Counted from the whole stretch's first letter, positions 2,516 to 61,645 are shown. The stretch: DNA of 63,023 bases, filler included, from Licmophora abbreviata (GCA_900291995.1; 14 parts of 14 records of this genome joined end to end with filler, not necessarily neighbours in it); one strand, 5' to 3'. A program made the numbers and translations. Notes: generated by a model not told the origin, from the letters alone.

Positions 2516-3274
2516 CTAAATATACTGTTTCGTCTCAAAAAACTTGCGCAAGTAGAGAATCTGCGCTACGCATACCGTTATCAACACGAATGCCTCCAAG
2601 ACGGTCCATCGCACCACCAACGAGTAGGTCTGCTCACTGACTTCCCGATGAGTCGCCTCCCGATTGCGCATATAGTCATGATGATTTCGCAAATCGTAGA
2701 GCTTGTTGGAAATGGCCTGTGTCAGTGAAAATAACAAGGTCGATTCTTCCTTCAATTCATCTGCCGTCTCATCACTGCTTGCAGTTCGCACTCGCACATC
2801 AATCCCAACACTCCGATCCAGTTTGTCCCGTGACTTGTGTTTGATTCCATTCTGAACACACAAGGACAGTCTGGTCGTACTCGTGCGGACGCCGGCGTCG
2901 TTGTTGATTTCGACTTCAAACAAGTCTTCACTGTCCCCACGTTTCGAACGATAGAGCTGGTTCAGATCGCTGTCTAGGATTACAACGGAGACGGGTTTCG
3001 GAGACAAATCGTCGTCCAAGACGTCAAAGTTGCCCGAAACGACCGACGGGGCATCAGAGGGCACTCGAATGAAGACGCAGCTTTCGTCGTTGTGACTGAC
3101 GGTCAAGACGAAGGACGCATGACTAGTAAGAGGGAAGAAGGTGACCAATAAAAGAAATAAGAAAAGGGAACCAGCAAAAGGCCGGGGTGGAGAAATGGAC
3201 TGGCTCGAGGGCGCCGCCATGGTTGATGGTCGTTGTCGTTTTGTGGTGCGATGTGAGCCGCCGGATTCATTCAA
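2516..3274 (-). CDS. emp24/gp25L/p24 (TMED, GOLD domain) cargo receptor
   Basis: Signal peptide, two GOLD-domain cysteines (ESCVF, LSLCVQN), coiled coil YMRNREATHRE, TM segment and cytosolic tail QILYLRKFFETKQYI. Confidence 0.9.
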   Translation of the reverse strand: MNESGGSHRTTKRQRPSTMAAPSSQSISPPRPFAGSLFLFLLLVTFFPLTSHASFVLTVSHNDESCVFIRVPSDAPSVVSGNFDVLDDDLSPKPVSVVILDSDLNQLYRSKRGDSEDLFEVEINNDAGVRTSTTRLSLCVQNGIKHKSRDKLDRSVGIDVRVRTASSDETADELKEESTLLFSLTQAISNKLYDLRNHHDYMRNREATHREVSEQTYSLVVRWTVLEAFVLITVCVAQILYLRKFFETKQYI

Positions 3275-11150: not shown

Positions 11151-11250
11151 NNNNNNNNNNNNNNNNNNNNNNNNNNNNNNNNNNNNNNNNNNNNTTAATT
11201 AATTAANNNNNNNNNNNNNNNNNNNNNNNNNNNNNNNNNNNNNNNNNNNN
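11151..11250. other. Artificial scaffold gap spacer; first of 13
   Basis: 44 N + TTAATTAATTAA (stop in all six frames) + 44 N. The same spacer is at 12482, 14912, 21393, 31178, 32330, 37607, 41794, 44957, 51821, 53574, 58034 and 61393. Confidence 0.98.
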
Positions 11251-25308: not shown

Positions 25309-27715
25309 CTAGACCGTCGTTGGTGGGTGTCCAGAGTCGTCAATGGTGCTTGTCGTCTCATTGTCTACCTCGTGAACGGTATCATTAGGCCGCTGAAGGA
25401 CATTCGGTTCCGTCTTGTCACGTCCAAACGACAACACGGCACGTGCAAAACCTCGAAGACGATATTTGCGTTCCTTGATAATCTTCAGGCTCTCTGACAA
25501 GTTTCGACTCGACAAGGAACTGTCGTCTTCCAAGATCCATCGGTTGCACAAAGCCTGTTCTGCGGTGAGCCGCTTGAGAGGGTCGACCATCAACAGCCCT
25601 CGAATCAAGTTCATGGCGTCGTCCGAAATGTGTTTCCAGTCACCCTCAAGGAACTCGTACTGGCCTGTGCGGATCTTTTGAAAGAGTTCCTTCTGGTTGT
25701 CTTCCATAAAGGGCGGGTAACCTACAAGGAGAACGAACGTAATGACGCCCACGCTCCACATGTCGGTGGCATTATCGTGTGGGACGTTTTTGAGAATCTC
25801 GGGAGAAACATAGGTCGGCGTTCCACAACGTGTTGTGAGAGATCGGGGAGTATGTACGCGGCGAGCAAAGCCAAAGTCTCCAACTTTGATGTCGGCGTCG
25901 TCGTCTTTGCTCTGCAGGAAAGGGGTGAAAGGCAGAACATTTTGCGTGAGCGCCCGACATTGAACATGGCCGAGACGAAGAACTCGCAATACAAGCAAAG
26001 ATACGTCCATAGCACACTGCATACCTTCAATAGCAGATTCTGTGGCTTGAGATCGCGGTGTGCGACGCCATGTTCGTGAATAAACTTGCATACCTTGAGC
26101 AGGATACGGATCAAATCACGCGCGTCCTTTTCGGTATAGCGGGTCTTCTCCACGATCCGATCAAACACATCACCACCTCGCATCAGTTCCATGACAATAA
26201 AGAAGTAATCAGGCTCCTCGTAAAAGTCCACCACCTGCACAATGTGCTGGTACTCGAGAGACTGGACGATGGCAACTTCATTCAACACAGCCTCATCTTC
26301 TGTCGGCTTGAGCCCATCTCTGGCGATGACCTTGACAGCATATTCATCGCCGGTCGCCCGATTCACGCACTCCCACACCGTGGCAAAAGAGCCTTTCCGA
26401 ATCTTTGTCTTGAGCTCGTACGAGTCTCGAAACAGCAATTTCTTCTTTTCCTTGGGCGGGCTGTCGGGGGCTGCCTTTTCCAGTTCTTCCTTGAAGGACT
26501 GGTCCCAGTCACTGAGTTGTTGGGCAAAGGTCACGTTGTCAGTATTCCAAAAGTTCGCCGTCATCATCCATCGAACTGCCTTGACGGCTCCTTTGAGACT
26601 GCGCCGAGCATGGAACTCCTTCATTTCGGAAAGCGAGGAAGACAAGTCATTCTCCGACAAGCTCGTGTCCTTCATCTTAAGCCAGTCGCATTCCAAAGCT
26701 TCCTGTGCAGTGCATCGAAACTCGGGATCAACTGTCAGTAAGGACGCAATGAGCTGCTTGCACTCAATTGATGCTTGTCCCCAGTACGCATCGTGAAAGA
26801 CGTAGTCACCGGCACGAATCTTGCGAAACAATCCACGATGATGTTCGTCTCGAAAGGGTGGATCTGATGAGTGAGGGAGAAAGAGAAGAGACAAACCATC
26901 ATAGAGAGAATTGTCAGATGATGCGTTTCCCTTGGTAGAGTCACACCAAACCTGTTCACTCCCATGTAGTACTCACAGCCTCCAATCAACAGGTACAAAA
27001 TGACGCCGACGCCCCACATGTCAACCGTTTCCGTATATTCTTCTCCAATCAAGACTTCCGGCGCCACAAAGGCCGGTGTGCCACAGCGGGTCTTTAAAAA
27101 CTCCCCCGCAGGACACTTCTTCGCAAATCCAAAGTCGGCGACCAAGATGTTGGTATCCGAGATCTCATCGTGCAGCAATAGATTTTCCGTTTTCAAATCG
27201 CGATGGACATATCGTCTGCTGTGAATGTCCGCGATAGTTTTCAACAAGGCCTTTGCCACCTTTCGTGCATCCGATTCTGTGTAGGTCTTGCGGTGTGCCA
27301 ATCGATCAAACAAGTCGCCGCCTCGGGCGAACTGCTGCACGACGTAGAAAGTGCCGGGGGTGACGAAGAAATCCAATAGTTCCACCACGCCCTGGACGCT
27401 GCGCAGGTCCATCAAGACGGACACTTCGCGAAAGACAGCATCGTCGTCTTTCTTTTTTAACTTGCTTCGATCAATGACCTTGGCTGCGTACTCTCTGCTG
27501 CGTGTCCCCTCCTCGGCTTCTTGCGTTACACAGACATAAACGGTACCGTACGATCCAGACCTTAGCTTTTGGGTGAGCCGATAAGAATTCTCAAAATTGA
27601 GAGTCTTTTGTTTTTTCATGCGCTCTTCCTTTTCGCCCTCTAGTGTAAACCCCACAGCAGGTTTCGAGGATTGACTAGAGGAGTCCTTGGGGTGAGCGGA
27701 AAGCGACGAAGACAT
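25309..27715 (-). CDS. Ser/Thr protein kinase with two tandem CaMK-like catalytic domains; introns 26864-26976 and 25912-26024
   Basis: Domain 1: GSYG, YAAK, HRDLKTEN, DFG, CGTPAFVAPE. Domain 2: GSFA, YAVK, HRDLKPQN, DFG, CGTPTYVSPE. The GT-AG introns restore GGYPPF and LLK|SKDDD. Confidence 0.92.
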
Positions 27716-28289
27716 GCTGGAGGACTCTCAATCTCAACCGGAGATTGATTTCATTGCTGTCGGACATCAAGAAGTTCGGCCATCACTTTCGGATCGGCGA
27801 AGATTCCTTCCATGCCGAGTGTCACATCGGGATGAGAGCTTGAGAGCTCGTATGTTCGGACGATGTACAGACTCAACTTGAGAAGTGCGTCAGATTTTTT
27901 TGATTGGTATGCTCTCCAGCGTACTTGACCAAAACATGAAATGAAATCGATAACAGAGATTTCAGCAATGACGCTCAGGAGTGGTTTGAGGTTTGAAATT
28001 TCGACTGAAATCTTTGGGCAAATGCAACATCAACATCACCAATCAACTTGTTGTCGTTGCATCACCAGAGGGACCCTCTTGTTGCTTGTGTCGTGTCGTT
28101 GAGGAGACAAGCCCCAGGACAGCAGCAGCGACCGTCTTTTGCGCGTCGAGAGAGTCTCTTTCTGTCATTGACCTTCTCAATTTCATTTGAGATTGCAGTG
28201 AATCTTTTCGCGTCCGATCCGAAAAAAATCTTTACAATCATCACAGTAGGTCGCGAACCCTGCTACTCGTAGACTAGTGGAAATTTATC

Positions 28290-31200
28290 ATGAAGTACAC
28301 TTCCGTGGCACTATCGGTGGCTTTCATGGGAGGGCTAGAGGCGTTTCGACTTCCGCAGTTACGTCGGTCCATGCCCTTGTCCGTGTCGCCGTACCGAGGG
28401 ACCAGCCATACAGACATTGCTCCCTTGTTCATGACGCCGCCAGATGGCAGCGACGAGAAGGATGCCCCGACGCCTTCTGAAGACTCTGCTGCATCGCCAC
28501 CCAAAGTGGAACCCGTACCAAAGGCTATGACAGCAGATCCACCCAAACCCCCTCCGAACGCAGCCATGGAGGCACAGAAACGCTTGAACGATGCCAAGGC
28601 TCGTGCCCAACAAACCGAGAAACTGACCGAGGCAGCCTGGAGTGCTGCCAGTGGATTGTTGCTGGGAGGTATCTTGGGAGAAGTGGCGCTTGTTCAGCTT
28701 CCAGATCTAGTGGATATCGCCGGTGGCAATGCGCTCGTGCCGCCGCTCGTGACGGGAGCCTTGCTGGGAGGTGCGGCCTTTGCGGGTGCCAATAGTGATT
28801 CACCAGCGTCTCCCATTGTCCGCAATACGCTCGGCAAGTCCTTGCAGGGGCTCTTTGCAGCCTTGGGGAATGCGATCAAGGATAAGGCTAAGGAAACGGT
28901 GGACGAGATTGCCAAACTTCCCGAAAAGGTAGCGGAGAGTGCCAAGGAAAAGGCCAAAGAGACGGCGGAGGAAATCGTCAAGATTCCGGGGCGAGTTTCA
29001 GAAGCGGCGAAAGAAAAGGCTCAAGAGACAGCCGAAGACATCTCTAGAATTCCGGGGAAGGTTTCGGAGGCTGCCAGGGAAAGAGCAAAGGAGACGGCAG
29101 AGGAGATTGCTCGGATTCCGGAAAAAGTGTCTGAAGCAGCCAAAGAGAGGGCTCAAGAGACAGCCGACGAGCTAGCTGCCATTCCCGACAAGATCAAGGA
29201 AGCGGCCAAAGAAAAGGCTCAGGAAACGGCCGATGAAATAGCCAGGATTCCGGAGAAGGTATCGGAGGCAGCAAAAGAAAAGGCAACGGAGATTGTCGAG
29301 GAGGCCAAGGCAACGCCTGGTCGAGTCGCCGAATCTACGAAACGAGCTATCGAAGAGACTGTTGAGGAGGTCGTGGAGGACGTCAAGGCCATCCCAAAAA
29401 AGACCATTACGCAGGTGGAGTCTGCCATTGCGGACGTTATACCGATGGAAAACATGCCAAAGTTGCCAGAGCCCCCCAAGGCACCTCCGGCACTCTTCGA
29501 AGAGAGTAAAGTGGCACCACCAAAGGCTGAAGCACCGAAACCGCCCAAACCACCCCAGGAGGCACCAAAGTTCAACTTGCCCAAGGTGGAGCCACCGAAA
29601 GTGGAAATTCCAAAAGTTAGTCTACCAAAGGTACCAAAACCGCCAAAGGCGCCTCCAAAGAAGGATGATGATTTTGTATTTAGCGAGGTGTCTCTGAAGC
29701 AGTTTGTTGGTCAAGTGAAAGGCAGCGAGACGAAGGGAGTAGATCGGGCAGAGCAAAAGAAGGAACAGGAACGGGCATCAGCGGCTAGAGCTGTAGAGGA
29801 GAAACGAAGGGCGGCGGATGCTGAGCGGAAGGCCGCTGCGGCGAAAGCGGCTGACGAACGTCTTGCCAAGAGTCGTACGGCGGCTGAGGCCAAGAAAAGG
29901 GTGGCTGAGGAAAAGCGGGCTGCCGCCGAAGCCGCGGCGGAGGCACGGGAAGAGCGGCGTCTTGAGGCTGAGGCCAAACGGCTGGAGGCTGAGGAAAAGC
30001 GGGCGGCTGCTCAGGCGGCCAAGGAAGCACGGGTGAGCACAGCTCCTTCCCTACCAAGGCCGACGCTTTCATTGACATCGTTGTTTGGTGTGGAACAAAC
30101 TGAAGAGGTTGCGTCTACCCCTACAGCAAAGAACATCCCCGCTGCCCCACGTGGGGTTCCCACTTTAACGAGCTGGCGACAAAATAGCGATGGCTCCATC
30201 ACCGGAAAGATTAGTGGTTCTCGAAGCTTTGATGATGGCGACACAGTCACGACATCTCCTATTCGAGGAGAACCAGGCGAAGGAGCGCTCGTGCAAACTG
30301 GGTCTGGATCAAAGTAAGTGCAATGATGTTCGCCTCGCAATTGTCTTGTGACGTGACTTTGCCATCTCTCACCATCGGGGCCGTCTGCGTAGATACTTTT
30401 TGGCGACAAAAACTTCAGGGGGTCTATTCAGTCTCTTCGGGGGAGGAGGCGCGCCAGCTACACCCAAAAAGACAGGACAGGCTGGAGAAGCGAAACGGCA
30501 AGCTGCCATACGAGCTAGGCAGGCAGAAGAAAGTACGGAATCGGCGCAGCCTAGATCTACTTTTTCTTTGTCGGCTCTTTTTGGGTCAGGTTCAGAGGTG
30601 GAGGAAGAAGAAGACGAAACCCCGGCGAGGCCGACAGTGCAGCCAAGAAAGATGTCTGCAGCTCCTCGAGGGGTTCCGACGATCACGAGTTGGAGGCAGA
30701 ATCGCGATGGCTCGATATCTGGAAAAATTTCGGGCTCCAAGAGCTTTACAGATGGCGAAGCAGTGACAACCTCGCCCGTTGGCGGTGACGCTACTGGCGG
30801 TGCAGTTGTTTCAACTTCCTCGGGATCCCGGTGAGTTCTGATTTCGGGGTATTGAAGTCTTAGCGTTGGGAGTATGCTGATCTAGCCATCTTTTTGTCGA
30901 TGCTTGGTGCAGGTACTATCTGGAAGAAAAAGCTGGAAAGTCTGAAGGAGGCATTCTTAGTCTTTTCGGTGGAAAATCCTCTCCTTCCGGTACGAGTGCG
31001 GAGGAGCGAGACGAGCGAAGGTGGCCGAGGCGGAGGCTCGTCGAATCAAAGCACAGGTTGCAGCCGAAGAGCGCCGTCAAGAGCAGGAAGAGCGATCGAG
31101 AGCCGCACAGGCAAGTGCAGAGTCCGCTAGGGCTGCAGCAGAGCAAAAGAAGCAGGCTCGTGCTGCGGAGATCGAGGNNNNNNNNNNNNNNNNNNNNNNN

Positions 31201-32329
31201 NNNNNNNNNNNNNNNNNNNNNTTAATTAATTAANNNNNNNNNNNNNNNNNNNNNNNNNNNNNNNNNNNNNNNNNNNNGCATTGAAGCCGAACGCGCCGCC
31301 GAAGAGAGACGCAGAGAGGCTGATAGAAAGCGAGCCGAAGCAGCTGCGACGGCGGAGGCTAAGAGAAAGGAAGCCGAGGCAAAGCGTGCAGCCGCTGCAA
31401 GGGTTAAGGCGGATAATTCTTCTCCACTGAAACAGAGGGCTACGTTCTCACTGTTCGGAACCGGTCAACCACAAGTTGAAACACCGGCTCGTGCTCCTGT
31501 GCCAGCCAAAAAAGCGGCTCAAGCCCCGAGAGGGGTACCGACAATCACAAGCTGGCGACAAAACCGCGATGGGTCCATATCTGGCCGTATATCTGGCTCG
31601 CCAAGTTTCGAAGAAGGCGAAGCAGTGACGACGTCCCCAATAGTTGGCGAGGCCACTAGTGGTTCTGTTGCCCGAACAGCATCAGGATCGAGGTAAGAGC
31701 GTCTGCCGTCACCTCCCGATCGAATATTCCTCTTGTATGTGCTTCTGATGTCGGATTCTTTTTTTCGTTTCATTGCAGATACTTCTTGGCCGATCCAGGC
31801 TCCCAGGGGTTCAGTCTGTTCGGCGGAGGCTCGCCTTCTTCGGACACGGGCAAATCTGCAGCTGAGAAAGCTGCTGAAGAGCGCCGGCGAAAGATCGAAC
31901 AAAATAAAGAGGCCGCACTCGCTGCTGCGGAAGCTCGTCGTGTCGCAGCTGAGGAGAAACGAGTTGCTGCGGCGGCAGCAGCACAGACAAAGAGGCAGGA
32001 AGCCGAAACGAAGAAGGCTGCTGCAGTCAAGGCACGACAGCCGGCGAAACAGACTCCCAACTTTTCTTCTTCCCGTCCAACAATTACCCTTTTTAGCTCC
32101 GGACCGGCTCCAAAAACAGCAGAGGCGCCACGTGGTGTACCGACGATTGTGGCGTGGAGACAGCGAGGCGATGGTATGTACTCCCAAGTGTGCTGGTGTT
32201 TTCGTTTGCGTCTGTCGAGTCTTTCGCTTACATTTTTCTGTGCGTGTGTAACTCAGGCGGCGTTACTGGAAAGATTTACGGTTCACCCAATTTTAACGAG
32301 GGAGAAAAAGTAGAGACATCGCCTATTGT
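28290..32329 (+). CDS. Large probably plastid-targeted repeat protein: TM hairpin, 22-aa amphipathic repeats, Pro-rich region, Ala/Glu/Arg coiled coils and at least 4 copies of a ~60-aa beta-domain; introns 30314-30392, 30831-30912, 31693-31778, 32174-32256; 3' end in gap
   Basis: Leader MKYTSVALSVAFMGGLEA|F. Domain consensus APRGVPTIxxWRQNxDGSIxGxISGSxxFxxGExVTTSPI...GxxVxTxSGS(K/R)Y(F/Y)L. Canonical GT-AG introns keep the frame. Continuity across gap 31178-31277 is inferred. Confidence 0.85.
28878..29400 (+). repeat. Coding tandem repeat, about 8 x 66 bp (22 aa, KEKAKETAEEIARIPEKVSEAA)
   Basis: Proline-punctuated 22-mers directly visible in the translation. Confidence 0.9.
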
Positions 32330-32807
32330 NNNNNNNNNNNNNNNNNNNNNNNNNNNNNNNNNNNNNNNNNNNNTTAATTAATTAANNNNNNNNNNNNNNN
32401 NNNNNNNNNNNNNNNNNNNNNNNNNNNNNGTAGTCTATATATCAGTCACACCAAATTTGTTAAAGACTGATCCGAATATCAGGACATATGACCACTAAAT
32501 AAGCCCGAACACCTGCTCTTTGCTCGTGCAAAAAACCGCGATTGGTATCGCCAAGTCTCCTCGATGACTGTCACACAACCTCAGTTGACTGTCAACTTGG
32601 CGAGACCCTGGTGCCGTTGGTTGCCTTTCAAGGTTTTAAACTGTGTTTCAAGTGTCTAAGGTGCAAGCCTGGTGATATCTTTCCTGAATCAAGCTCCAAA
32701 GAGGCACAAGAAAAAGTCCTGGATCGCGAGTCGAGCAGGTGCTCGAAAAGGCAAATTTAGCGAGTGATCGGAAGTCAGAAGATACATTTCGCATTCTCCT
32801 CTTCACC

Positions 32808-34070
32808 ATGAACCGTCACGTCGTCATCCCGGATGTCAACATGGACGACGAGGCATCCTGCTACTCTAACGAGGCACGAACGGCGGGGGGCTACAGCAGC
32901 GGAATTTACCAGCCTGGCAGCGGTCGACCCGGTTATCCCCGTACAGTAGGAGCGCCGGTGGGAGGAGCTGCCTCCGTCTCGTCGTCTGACCCCGAAGTCG
33001 TCTCTGTCAAGCGCGATCGAGAGCGGGAGGGTCGCTGTGGAGACTGTGGTGTGCAGACGCACGAGTTTCGGGTGGACCCTCAGTCCGGACAGCATTCCAA
33101 GATGGCCCTGAACGTGGAGGGCGAGGTCCATCGCGGACGGTGTCTCTTCTGTCATCCTCTTCCGGCCAAGCATAATCCTGCACTGACCAACGTCGTCTAC
33201 TCCTCGTCGCGGTCCATCAACTCCGTCTCTTCGCATGGGAATAACTCTGTACACAGTGCCGGTGGGCTTCCTCCGCTCCATGGTCGATTGGCTGCTCTTC
33301 ATCATGGAAGGAACATCTACCCCGACACGGTCGAGAGTAGGAGCGTCACGTCCACAGTGACGAGCAGCATCGTGGACGAGACGCTTCAAGGTCTCGAAGA
33401 AGGATCGTCTGACCTATTGGACGTCTTGACTGCCATGAGACATTTTCCTGATGAACGTCAGATTCAGGCTCGTGGTCTTGAGAAACTCTGGATCCAATCG
33501 TACGATGAAGAGAATTCTCTTGCCATTGGTCGCATCGGTGGCATCCCTACCATCCTCAATGCCATGACTACCTTCCCCGAATACTCCAACATACAGCAGT
33601 GTGGATGTGAGACACTGCAGAACTTGGCCGACAATGAATACAATCGCGATGCCATCGTCGAACACGGAGGCGTGAACGCCATTGTCAACGCCATGAACTA
33701 TCACGCTGAAGTCGTGGGCGTGCAACAGTGCGGATGCTCCGCCCTGGGCAACATGTCGAGTTCACCTCAGCACCAGCTGGACGTGGCCAACGCTGGTGGG
33801 ATTCATGCCATAGTCAACGCGGCACAGCGATTTCGCGACGAGGAAGGTGTCCTTCGAGCCGCCTATCAGGCTCTTCGATCGATGGGATACGATCCCAACC
33901 GTAATGGGAGCACTGCTGCCAGCGTCAGCCACGGTGTCGCTGAGGCGTCAAATGTAAAGGAACAACAGCAGGGTGACCCCATCCAGCAGGATGAACAGGT
34001 TGAAGGACAGGATGAGCAGAGTAAAGGGAACGCTGTCGTCTTGGATCAGCACGGATTTCCCATGAACTAG
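32808..34070 (+). CDS. Armadillo-repeat protein with N-terminal Cys4 module
   Basis: ARM-like units (GGIPTILNAMTTFP..IQQCGCETLQNLA; GGVNAIVNAM..VQQCGCSALGNM; GGIHAIVNAA) plus CGDC...CLFC. Confidence 0.8.
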   Translation: MNRHVVIPDVNMDDEASCYSNEARTAGGYSSGIYQPGSGRPGYPRTVGAPVGGAASVSSSDPEVVSVKRDREREGRCGDCGVQTHEFRVDPQSGQHSKMALNVEGEVHRGRCLFCHPLPAKHNPALTNVVYSSSRSINSVSSHGNNSVHSAGGLPPLHGRLAALHHGRNIYPDTVESRSVTSTVTSSIVDETLQGLEEGSSDLLDVLTAMRHFPDERQIQARGLEKLWIQSYDEENSLAIGRIGGIPTILNAMTTFPEYSNIQQCGCETLQNLADNEYNRDAIVEHGGVNAIVNAMNYHAEVVGVQQCGCSALGNMSSSPQHQLDVANAGGIHAIVNAAQRFRDEEGVLRAAYQALRSMGYDPNRNGSTAASVSHGVAEASNVKEQQQGDPIQQDEQVEGQDEQSKGNAVVLDQHGFPMN

Positions 34071-61392: not shown

Positions 61393-61645
61393 NNNNNNNN
61401 NNNNNNNNNNNNNNNNNNNNNNNNNNNNNNNNNNNNTTAATTAATTAANNNNNNNNNNNNNNNNNNNNNNNNNNNNNNNNNNNNNNNNNNNNTCTTTTCA
61501 TCATCCCGCCGTCGATTCGTTCTCCTTGCTCTCGCTCTTGGAAGAAACCCTCCGCGTGTGTCCCCCCAATAGTGACAGTGAACGTCGCAAGGTTTTGAGT
61601 GCTTCTCAAGTACTTTTTCAAATTTGTAATTTTCCACTCACAAAT

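Follow-up and report, generated by a model that had tools for sequence, protein, structure and literature searches.

A putative membrane-anchored plastid protein of the diatom Licmophora abbreviata with repeated copies of an apparently undescribed β-domain

Introduction

The preprint by Shimakawa et al. (PDB 8WQP) describes the diatom pyrenoid protein PyShell as a soluble stromal protein without transmembrane helices, for which homologues were retrieved by BLAST. Its fold comprises 16 strands, contributed by regions CR1 and CR2 and arranged in two sheets, and shows internal pseudo-two-fold symmetry; six Shell homologues, each with two β-sheet regions, are reported in the preprint by Nam et al. 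For Chlamydomonas, a further preprint (bioRxiv 10.64898/2026.06.09.731149) describes MITH1 as having an amphipathic membrane-binding helix, an extended coiled coil and several Rubisco sites, and a review (PMC13655443) gives KWSPRGGS and GTGYNP as the stickers of PYCO1. Here we analyze a stretch of 63,023 nucleotides from Licmophora abbreviata (GCA_900291995.1; 14 parts from 14 records, joined end to end with filler; hereafter the window), in which a gene that begins at position 28290 encodes a large protein whose helical rods alternate with β-domain beads, referred to below as the tether-like protein. An earlier note on this DNA had read the product as a giant membrane-anchored plastid protein with PyShell-like β-domains, and had proposed it as a candidate tether between the pyrenoid shell and a membrane.

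The tether-like protein has diatoms, a stramenopile-type plastid presequence, and all-β modules in common with PyShell and Shell1-6. PyShell is small and soluble, whereas the tether-like protein has more than 1,200 residues and a hydrophobic hairpin, and in place of 16 strands in two sheets its bead is a single predicted six-strand barrel of ~59 residues that is repeated four or more times. The closest working analogue that we found is MITH1, which may follow the same principle, in that the N-terminus binds the membrane, a helical rod extends from it, and several binding sites project outward. MITH1 belongs to the green lineage, so that homology is not expected, and its dimeric coiled coil itself bears the Rubisco sites, whereas in the tether-like protein folded beads alternate with charged helices. 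PYCO1 and EPYC1 are also multivalent algal plastid repeat proteins, composed of stickers and spacers, but they are largely disordered with short stickers, whereas here a folded domain is repeated with a period of ~150-240 residues and accompanied by a putative membrane anchor. Tandem 22-residue (2 x 11) proline-punctuated amphipathic helices are shared with the exchangeable apolipoproteins (PF01442) and, presumably, with group-3 LEA proteins; unlike in the apolipoproteins, these repeats follow a hydrophobic hairpin in what appears to be a plastid protein, and their scores are far below the family cut-off.

Results

Structure of the gene and state of the assembly

Gene structure, repeat anatomy, family and C-terminal position, and predicted fold are what the analysis shows. 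On the + strand, an open reading frame (ORF) spans 28278 to 30313, with its first in-frame ATG at position 28290, and four canonical GT..AG introns (coordinates in Table 1) connect it with later exons, giving a single multi-exon gene that extends to beyond 32329 and whose visible spliced model has 1,201 residues. Introns 1-3 share the same phase-2 position within the K/R codon of SGS(K/R)|Y(F/Y)L, so that each exon comprises the last strand of one domain, a linker and helix, and strands 1-5 of the domain that follows.

The window contains 13 linkers of 100 nucleotides each, all built as N44-TTAATTAATTAA-N44 (e.g., 11151-11250 and 61393-61492). This element is a six-frame stop linker for concatenating contigs, and gap sizes are therefore arbitrary and adjoining pieces are not necessarily true neighbours. 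Two of the linkers, 31178-31277 and 32330-32429, interrupt the gene, and the contig between them (31278-32329) has only ~1 kb. A search of the whole window with the family profile returned no further domain copy after 32430 or elsewhere, hence the gene lacks its 3' end here. The frame is also broken at ~31005-31025, inside the A/E/K/R helix of the third unit, where a one-base correction restores it. Contigs from four marine-metagenome DNA runs were 151-251 nucleotides long, and none of them spanned 30900-31177.

Short contigs joined by 13 linkers, a frame break near 31010 and a middle contig of ~1 kb are what would be expected if the locus were an assembly artefact, a pseudogene, or a set of separate genes stitched from unrelated contigs. 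We regard this as very unlikely. All pieces lie on one strand and continue the same repeat unit, the four canonical introns are intact with three of them at one phase-2 position, and frames stay open with intact splice sites for more than 1 kb past the break, which makes an assembly indel likelier than a dead gene; a single one-base indel of the draft assembly probably explains the break. Furthermore, orthologues of 900-1,750 residues hold the leader, the hydrophobic hairpin, the 22-mers, the proline-rich spacer and the domain repeats in one protein, among them sequences of 1,612 residues with six domains (P0005), 1,752 residues with seven domains (P0160), 1,353 residues from an MMETSP transcriptome (P0013) and 1,169 residues (P0009), as well as one from a further MMETSP record (P0161). 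A metagenome contig from another species (L002) encodes the same spacer, the DDFVFSEVSL motif and several units, and at ~3013-3096 it has the same phase-2 intron after SGS(K/R), before the last domain strand, as the window gene. With whole-layout orthologues, some of them from transcriptomes, and with this contig, the single-gene model is well supported, and the earlier expectation of one giant gene with a spliced product of more than 1150 residues was correct.

Leader, hairpin, amphipathic repeats and spacer

The protein begins with MKYTSVALSVAFMGGLEA|FRLP, which reads as a signal peptide ending in LEA, followed by Phe and then by a Ser/Pro/Arg-rich stretch. By inspection, this has the form of a stramenopile bipartite plastid presequence, and on its sequence we classify the leader as of the diatom plastid type. 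Under the ASAFAP rule, Phe directly after the signal peptide would point to the stroma as the destination.

Downstream are two Gly/Ala-rich hydrophobic segments at residues ~116-137 and ~148-168, with Kyte-Doolittle maxima over 19 residues of 1.69 and 1.57; in orthologues, where the segment is conserved, these maxima reach 2.2. When 27 orthologue rows were used for AlphaFold2, the hairpin was modelled as helices with a predicted local distance difference test (pLDDT) score of 82-89. The hairpin is followed by eight 22-mers, in which the spacing between prolines is 22 six times and then 26, and for which Tandem Repeats Finder reports a 66-nucleotide period with 5.2 copies. Their mean helical hydrophobic moment is 0.455, compared with 0.221 +/- 0.027 for shuffled sequences (0 of 500 shuffles reach 0.455). 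A Pro/Lys spacer containing 28% proline comes next. The elements that the earlier note had listed for this half of the protein, namely an EA|F plastid-type leader (here ...LEA|F at residues 18/19), two Gly-rich hydrophobic segments, about eight proline-punctuated 22-mers and a Pro/Lys-rich spacer, were all recovered.

The main function could, in principle, reside here, with the N-terminal part forming an apolipoprotein- or LEA-like coat that stabilizes or shapes the thylakoid, the envelope or a plastoglobule, and with the C-terminal repeats acting as a stromal brush or spacer and not as binders of a specific partner. The strong 22-residue proline-punctuated amphipathic periodicity would suit such a coat, as would the low-confidence helices into which AlphaFold2 places the 22-mers, which are expected of segments that fold on a surface. 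Weak, sub-threshold matches to Apolipoprotein A1/A4/E (PF01442) recur in the window protein (E 0.0015, 18.7 bits), P0072 and P0158, and we take the hexamer AAKEKA to resemble the group-3 LEA 11-mer. The Pfam scores are nonetheless all far under the gathering cut-off of 90 bits, the best among family members being 26.7, such that the tandem proline-punctuated repeats amount to a likeness of design and not to membership; a Pfam scan of pieces of the window returned nothing above cut-off, and neither LEA_4 nor CAAD/CURT1 matched at E<=1. Moreover, the β-domain is the most conserved part of the family and is also found without this N-terminus, which argues for a specific function of the bead. We therefore hold a primarily N-terminal role to be improbable.

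Repeat units

The remainder of the visible protein consists of repeat units, each comprising an A/E/K/R-rich helix, an R(P/S/A)T(F/L/I)(S/T)L..F(G/S) motif, a linker of 20-35 residues, and a β-domain of ~60 residues. As the earlier note had it, there are four motif-plus-domain copies, of which three are complete and end in SGS.Y.L after splicing, and the fourth is cut at 32329 by the linker; they are 53-60% identical to the first copy. All follow the profile PR.TFSLFG ... AP.GVPT..W..N.DGS..G.I.GS..F..G..(V/I)TTSPI...G..V.T.SGS.Y.L of the new family, with independent E-values (i-E) of 1e-28 to 1e-31 for the three full copies, and with two partial matches for the fourth, which is split. The hydrophobic fraction of the domains is 24-29% when counted strictly and 48-57% when Y, P, and G are included; any comparison with a published '>50%' depends on how that fraction is defined. 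An assignment of domain 4 to the 'penultimate' type of pennate orthologues was considered and dropped, the identity gap being too small (0.72 versus 0.70 for P0040).

Behind each complete domain stands a second Gly-rich (F/L)SLFG motif. FSLFG, LSLFG or GGLFSLFGGGG motifs thus occur before and after every domain, at seven sites between model residues 593 and 1163 (e.g., DNA 30066-30089 and 30429-30443), and we take these flanking motifs to be reminiscent of nucleoporin FG/GLFG repeats.

Bulky hydrophobics are scarce in the rod helices (3 of 58 and 4 of 60 positions in two examples), a composition that suggests a single charged helix rather than a heptad coiled coil. This reading follows from the scarcity of bulky hydrophobics and not from the number of i/i+4 salt bridges, which is only ~0.5-1.6 standard deviations above that of shuffled sequences.

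A large family with a C-terminal β-domain

A search of 1.84 billion representative proteins with the profile of the four window copies yielded 723 matches at E<=1e-3, of which 474 have E<=1e-10 and 71 have E<=1e-30. Most of the matching entries bear no source name; the eight names seen are all diatoms and include Leptocylindrus danicus, Skeletonema menzelii, Fistulifera solaris, 'Cha' (MMETSP0200), and 'Nitzs'. The family, so far seen with diatom names only, may be confined to diatoms, which these names do not allow us to claim. A search with P0001 for related metagenome loci found no relative, and no named Phaeodactylum tricornutum or Thalassiosira pseudonana orthologue was among the returns of a third homologue search.

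In a Pfam scan of 84 members, 83 had no family at E<=1e-5, the exception being one sub-threshold Apolipoprotein match, and among 37 domain segments no Pfam family recurred at a threshold as loose as E<=10. The motif strings of the family gave no paper in a full-text literature search, and the family is not mentioned in the literature searched. From these sequence comparisons, the bead appears to define a large, previously undescribed family without a Pfam match.

Copy number and position were counted in 229 sequences with the domain, four of which are window fragments. Two copies are present in 125 of the 229, and the maximum is seven. Exactly four residues past the profile end (Y-x-L-x, then stop), 153 of the 229 terminate, and another 38 end at SGSx, including three window fragments that were cut there on purpose. 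The β-domain is almost always C-terminal and usually tandem. As a separate observation, the 35 database gene predictions that stop at SGSx do so at the site of the conserved phase-2 intron.

A leader rule, formulated as an h-region followed by [AGSC]F, was satisfied by 35 of 88 family members that start with Met, compared with 2 of 88 and 4 of 88 in two control sets. Other subfamilies (P0069, P0081, P0082; P0029, P0035, P0043, P0049, P0064) have the same C-terminal domain pair and quite different N-termini; one group starts with NTGGL(A/S)GE.GI(K/R)YA and another with DPDILLKMVEEL, and most have no obvious leader in their gene models.

Predicted fold of the bead

Because an intron takes the last strand from the window copies, a complete family member of 100 residues (P0143) was chosen for modelling by AlphaFold2, with an alignment of 37 sequences, among them the three complete copies from the window. 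The model is a barrel of ~59 residues with six strands, and pLDDT is 94-97 over residues 41-100. A two-copy complex prediction scored 0.00 with the alignment not used, and speaks neither for nor against self-association.

Foldseek found no match in the PDB at E<=1e-3. The top-ranked entries, which are weak, were the SANTA domain of M18BP1 (9r6h; E 0.11, probability 0.91-0.95) and the RFTS domain of DNMT1 (3epz); these matches span the whole domain and stand above background, with a structure-based identity of 17-21%. The SANTA model of Pfam (PF09133) had no match in P0001-P0004 at E<=1 or in the 37 domain segments at E<=10. With weak fold matches and no Pfam match, we call the domain SANTA/RFTS-like and claim no membership, and the model itself suggests this likeness weakly. 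The T-x-SGS-x-Y-x-L ending, in our view, presumably resembles the SANTA consensus. A look-up of P0143 in the ESM Atlas returned only one viral cluster (score 0.75) and was uninformative.

The SANTA domain of M18BP1/KNL2 and the RFTS domain of DNMT1 are found in nuclear chromatin proteins, whereas members of the diatom bead family often have plastid-type leaders. That the only fold matches above background are chromatin barrels, i.e. M18BP1 SANTA and the RFTS domains of DNMT1, MET1 and DIM2, could suggest that the beads bind nucleoid proteins or DNA at a plastid membrane and so anchor the nucleoid, a role known in plants for the coiled-coil protein MFP1. With no Pfam SANTA match to accompany the fold likeness, we consider a nucleoid or nucleic-acid anchor the least probable of the functions discussed here, and a remote prospect.

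Comparison with PyShell and the pyrenoid

The likeness to PyShell suggested in the earlier note gained no support. One repeat unit (P0002), searched with phmmer, and the 37-sequence profile matched no PyShell chain at E<=10 among all PDB chains (a 2026 copy, which should hold 8WQP, whose presence was not independently confirmed); the only matches at that threshold were afifavidin, DNAJB6, and a capsid protein. Three fold searches list SANTA and RFTS and no PyShell entry, an absence from the list that does not exclude the fold. With the PyShell likeness unsupported, the proposal of a pyrenoid tether loses its only stated basis, and a pyrenoid link of the tether-like protein, argued by analogy, is at present speculation.

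Such a link can still be weighed without PyShell homology. The protein might connect the pyrenoid, either its PyShell lattice or its Rubisco matrix, to thylakoids, with the beads docking as MITH1 or the RBMP proteins do in Chlamydomonas. An anchor with rods and several binding modules would parallel the layout of MITH1 as given in its preprint, and a C-terminal module common to many plastid proteins would fit a shared 'address tag'. According to Nam et al., T. pseudonana has no homologue of EPYC1 or PYCO1, and what packages its Rubisco is not known. Against this stand the missing sequence link to PyShell, the absence of the PYCO1 stickers KWSPRGGS and GTGYNP from the domain, and the statement, in the same preprint, that no pyrenoid protein of Nam et al. 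has a repeat at the expected ~60-residue frequency. On this balance we judge a pyrenoid linker to be unlikely. We likewise think it improbable, and rather more of a conjecture, that the bead serves across diatoms as an address tag by which many plastid proteins dock on one pyrenoid structure, Rubisco or the PyShell lattice, with the giant member stapling thylakoid to pyrenoid. If so, the bead could belong to the Rubisco-organising system that is still to be found in diatoms without PYCO1, and the giant member, made from a folded SANTA-like domain, would do the work of MITH1 and the Rubisco-binding-motif proteins in Chlamydomonas.

Discussion

We propose, at roughly even chances, that the gene encodes a plastid membrane-anchored, multivalent tether in which rods and beads alternate; from the layout we infer that the protein enters the plastid, inserts into a membrane, has a partner and tethers it. 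The product of this nuclear gene, which belongs to a diatom-like alga, has at least 1,200 residues and would be imported into the plastid, where the hydrophobic helical hairpin would hold it at the thylakoid or the inner envelope. A hairpin crosses the membrane twice, so that the N- and C-termini of the protein would lie on one side of it, and the amphipathic 22-mers that follow the hairpin would rest on the membrane surface. Carried by the Pro/Lys spacer and charged helices, the beads and the FG-like motifs would reach tens of nanometres into the stroma, where the repeated beads may offer multivalent binding to a plastid partner that is abundant or oligomeric, and would tether or space that partner relative to the membrane. 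From the earlier description as a giant membrane-anchored plastid protein, the size, the plastid-type leader and the confidently modelled hairpin stand, and the import and insertion that it implies stay conditional.

Several observations weigh against a tether of this kind. The hydropathy of the hairpin segments in the window protein is borderline for a transmembrane helix, and the segments could be peripheral. Only 35 of the 88 members pass the leader rule; many of those that fail look 5'-truncated, and some subfamilies may not be plastidial. The FSLFG motif is not confidently placed by AlphaFold2 (pLDDT 55-62) and is not docked on the domain. In this assembly, the gene copy has a frame break and has lost its 3' end. 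The literature search gave no report of localization, expression or interaction for any family member, and the literature on diatom pyrenoids and tethers gave no diatom protein of rod-and-bead kind among the matches listed.

Diatoms fix about one fifth of global CO2, as stated in the diatom pyrenoid preprints. Most structural proteins specific to the diatom plastid are still without names, and this locus reveals a large family without a Pfam match, of which the window gene is an extreme member, with the barrel joined to long rods and a putative membrane anchor. Should the beads bind a particular plastid structure, such as the pyrenoid, the thylakoid bands or the nucleoid, they would provide a handle on how the sub-compartments of the diatom plastid are organized; if they have no such partner, the protein would be one more uncharacterised lineage-specific scaffold. 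The profile from this analysis permits the family to be looked up directly in existing diatom pyrenoid and plastid proteomes.

Feature coordinates and neighbouring genes

Table 1 Features of the tether-like gene, in window coordinates; residues refer to the spliced model.
Feature	Position	Strand	Remark
Signal peptide, residues 1-18, MKYTSVALSVAFMGGLEA	28290..28343	+	Predicted cleavage puts Phe at +1
Transit-peptide-like stretch, residues 19-50	28344..28439	+	Ser/Pro/Arg-rich, net charge +3, read from the sequence
Putative membrane hairpin: two Gly/Ala-rich hydrophobic helices with a short Pro-containing loop, residues 116-168	28635..28793	+	
Eight proline-punctuated amphipathic 22-mers, residues 196-385	28875..29444	+	
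Pro/Lys-rich spacer, PKVE(I/L)PKV-type repeats	29445..29660	+	Region conserved in orthologues
Conserved KDDDFVFSEVSLKQF motif	29661..29705	+	In most aligned orthologues and metagenome locus L002
First A/E/K/R-rich helical rod, residues ~480-585	29727..30044	+	
Unit 1: PRPTLSLTSLFG motif, linker, β-domain strands 1-5, ending in SGSK	30039..30313	+	i-E 1.2e-28 against the family profile
Intron 1, GTAAGT..AG, phase 2	30314..30392	+	Splicing yields SGSK-YFL
Unit 2: last strand of domain 1 (YFL), GGLFSLFGGGG, short helix, STFSLSALFG, domain 2	30393..30830	+	i-E 1e-29
Intron 2, GTGAGT..AG, phase 2	30831..30912	+	
Start of unit 3: YYL, GGILSLFGG motif, helix with frame break	30913..31177	+	Two frames each hold part of one A/E/K/R helix
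Artificial contig linker, N44-TTAATTAATTAA-N44	31178..31277	.	Gap size arbitrary
Remaining helix, ATFSLFG motif, domain 3	31280..31692	+	i-E 1.2e-31
Intron 3, GTAAGA..AG, phase 2	31693..31778	+	
Unit 4: YFL, GFSLFGGG motif, helix, PTITLFS motif, first half of domain 4	31779..32173	+	
Intron 4, GTATGT..AG, within domain 4	32174..32256	+	Splicing gives WRQRGDGGVTGKIYGSPNF
Middle of domain 4, cut by linker 32330-32429	32257..32329	+	

Upstream of the gene lies an exon of a protein kinase gene on the opposite strand (26738-27727, -; Pfam Pkinase, E 2.4e-50). After the second linker, an ORF at 32808-34067 (+), unrelated to the tether-like gene, has weak armadillo-repeat matches (ARM_ARMC5 at E 3.5e-11, below its cut-off; ARM_LRRK2 at 36.6 bits against a cut-off of 26.2), and close to its start is a Cys-x2-Cys ... 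Cys-x2-His stretch.

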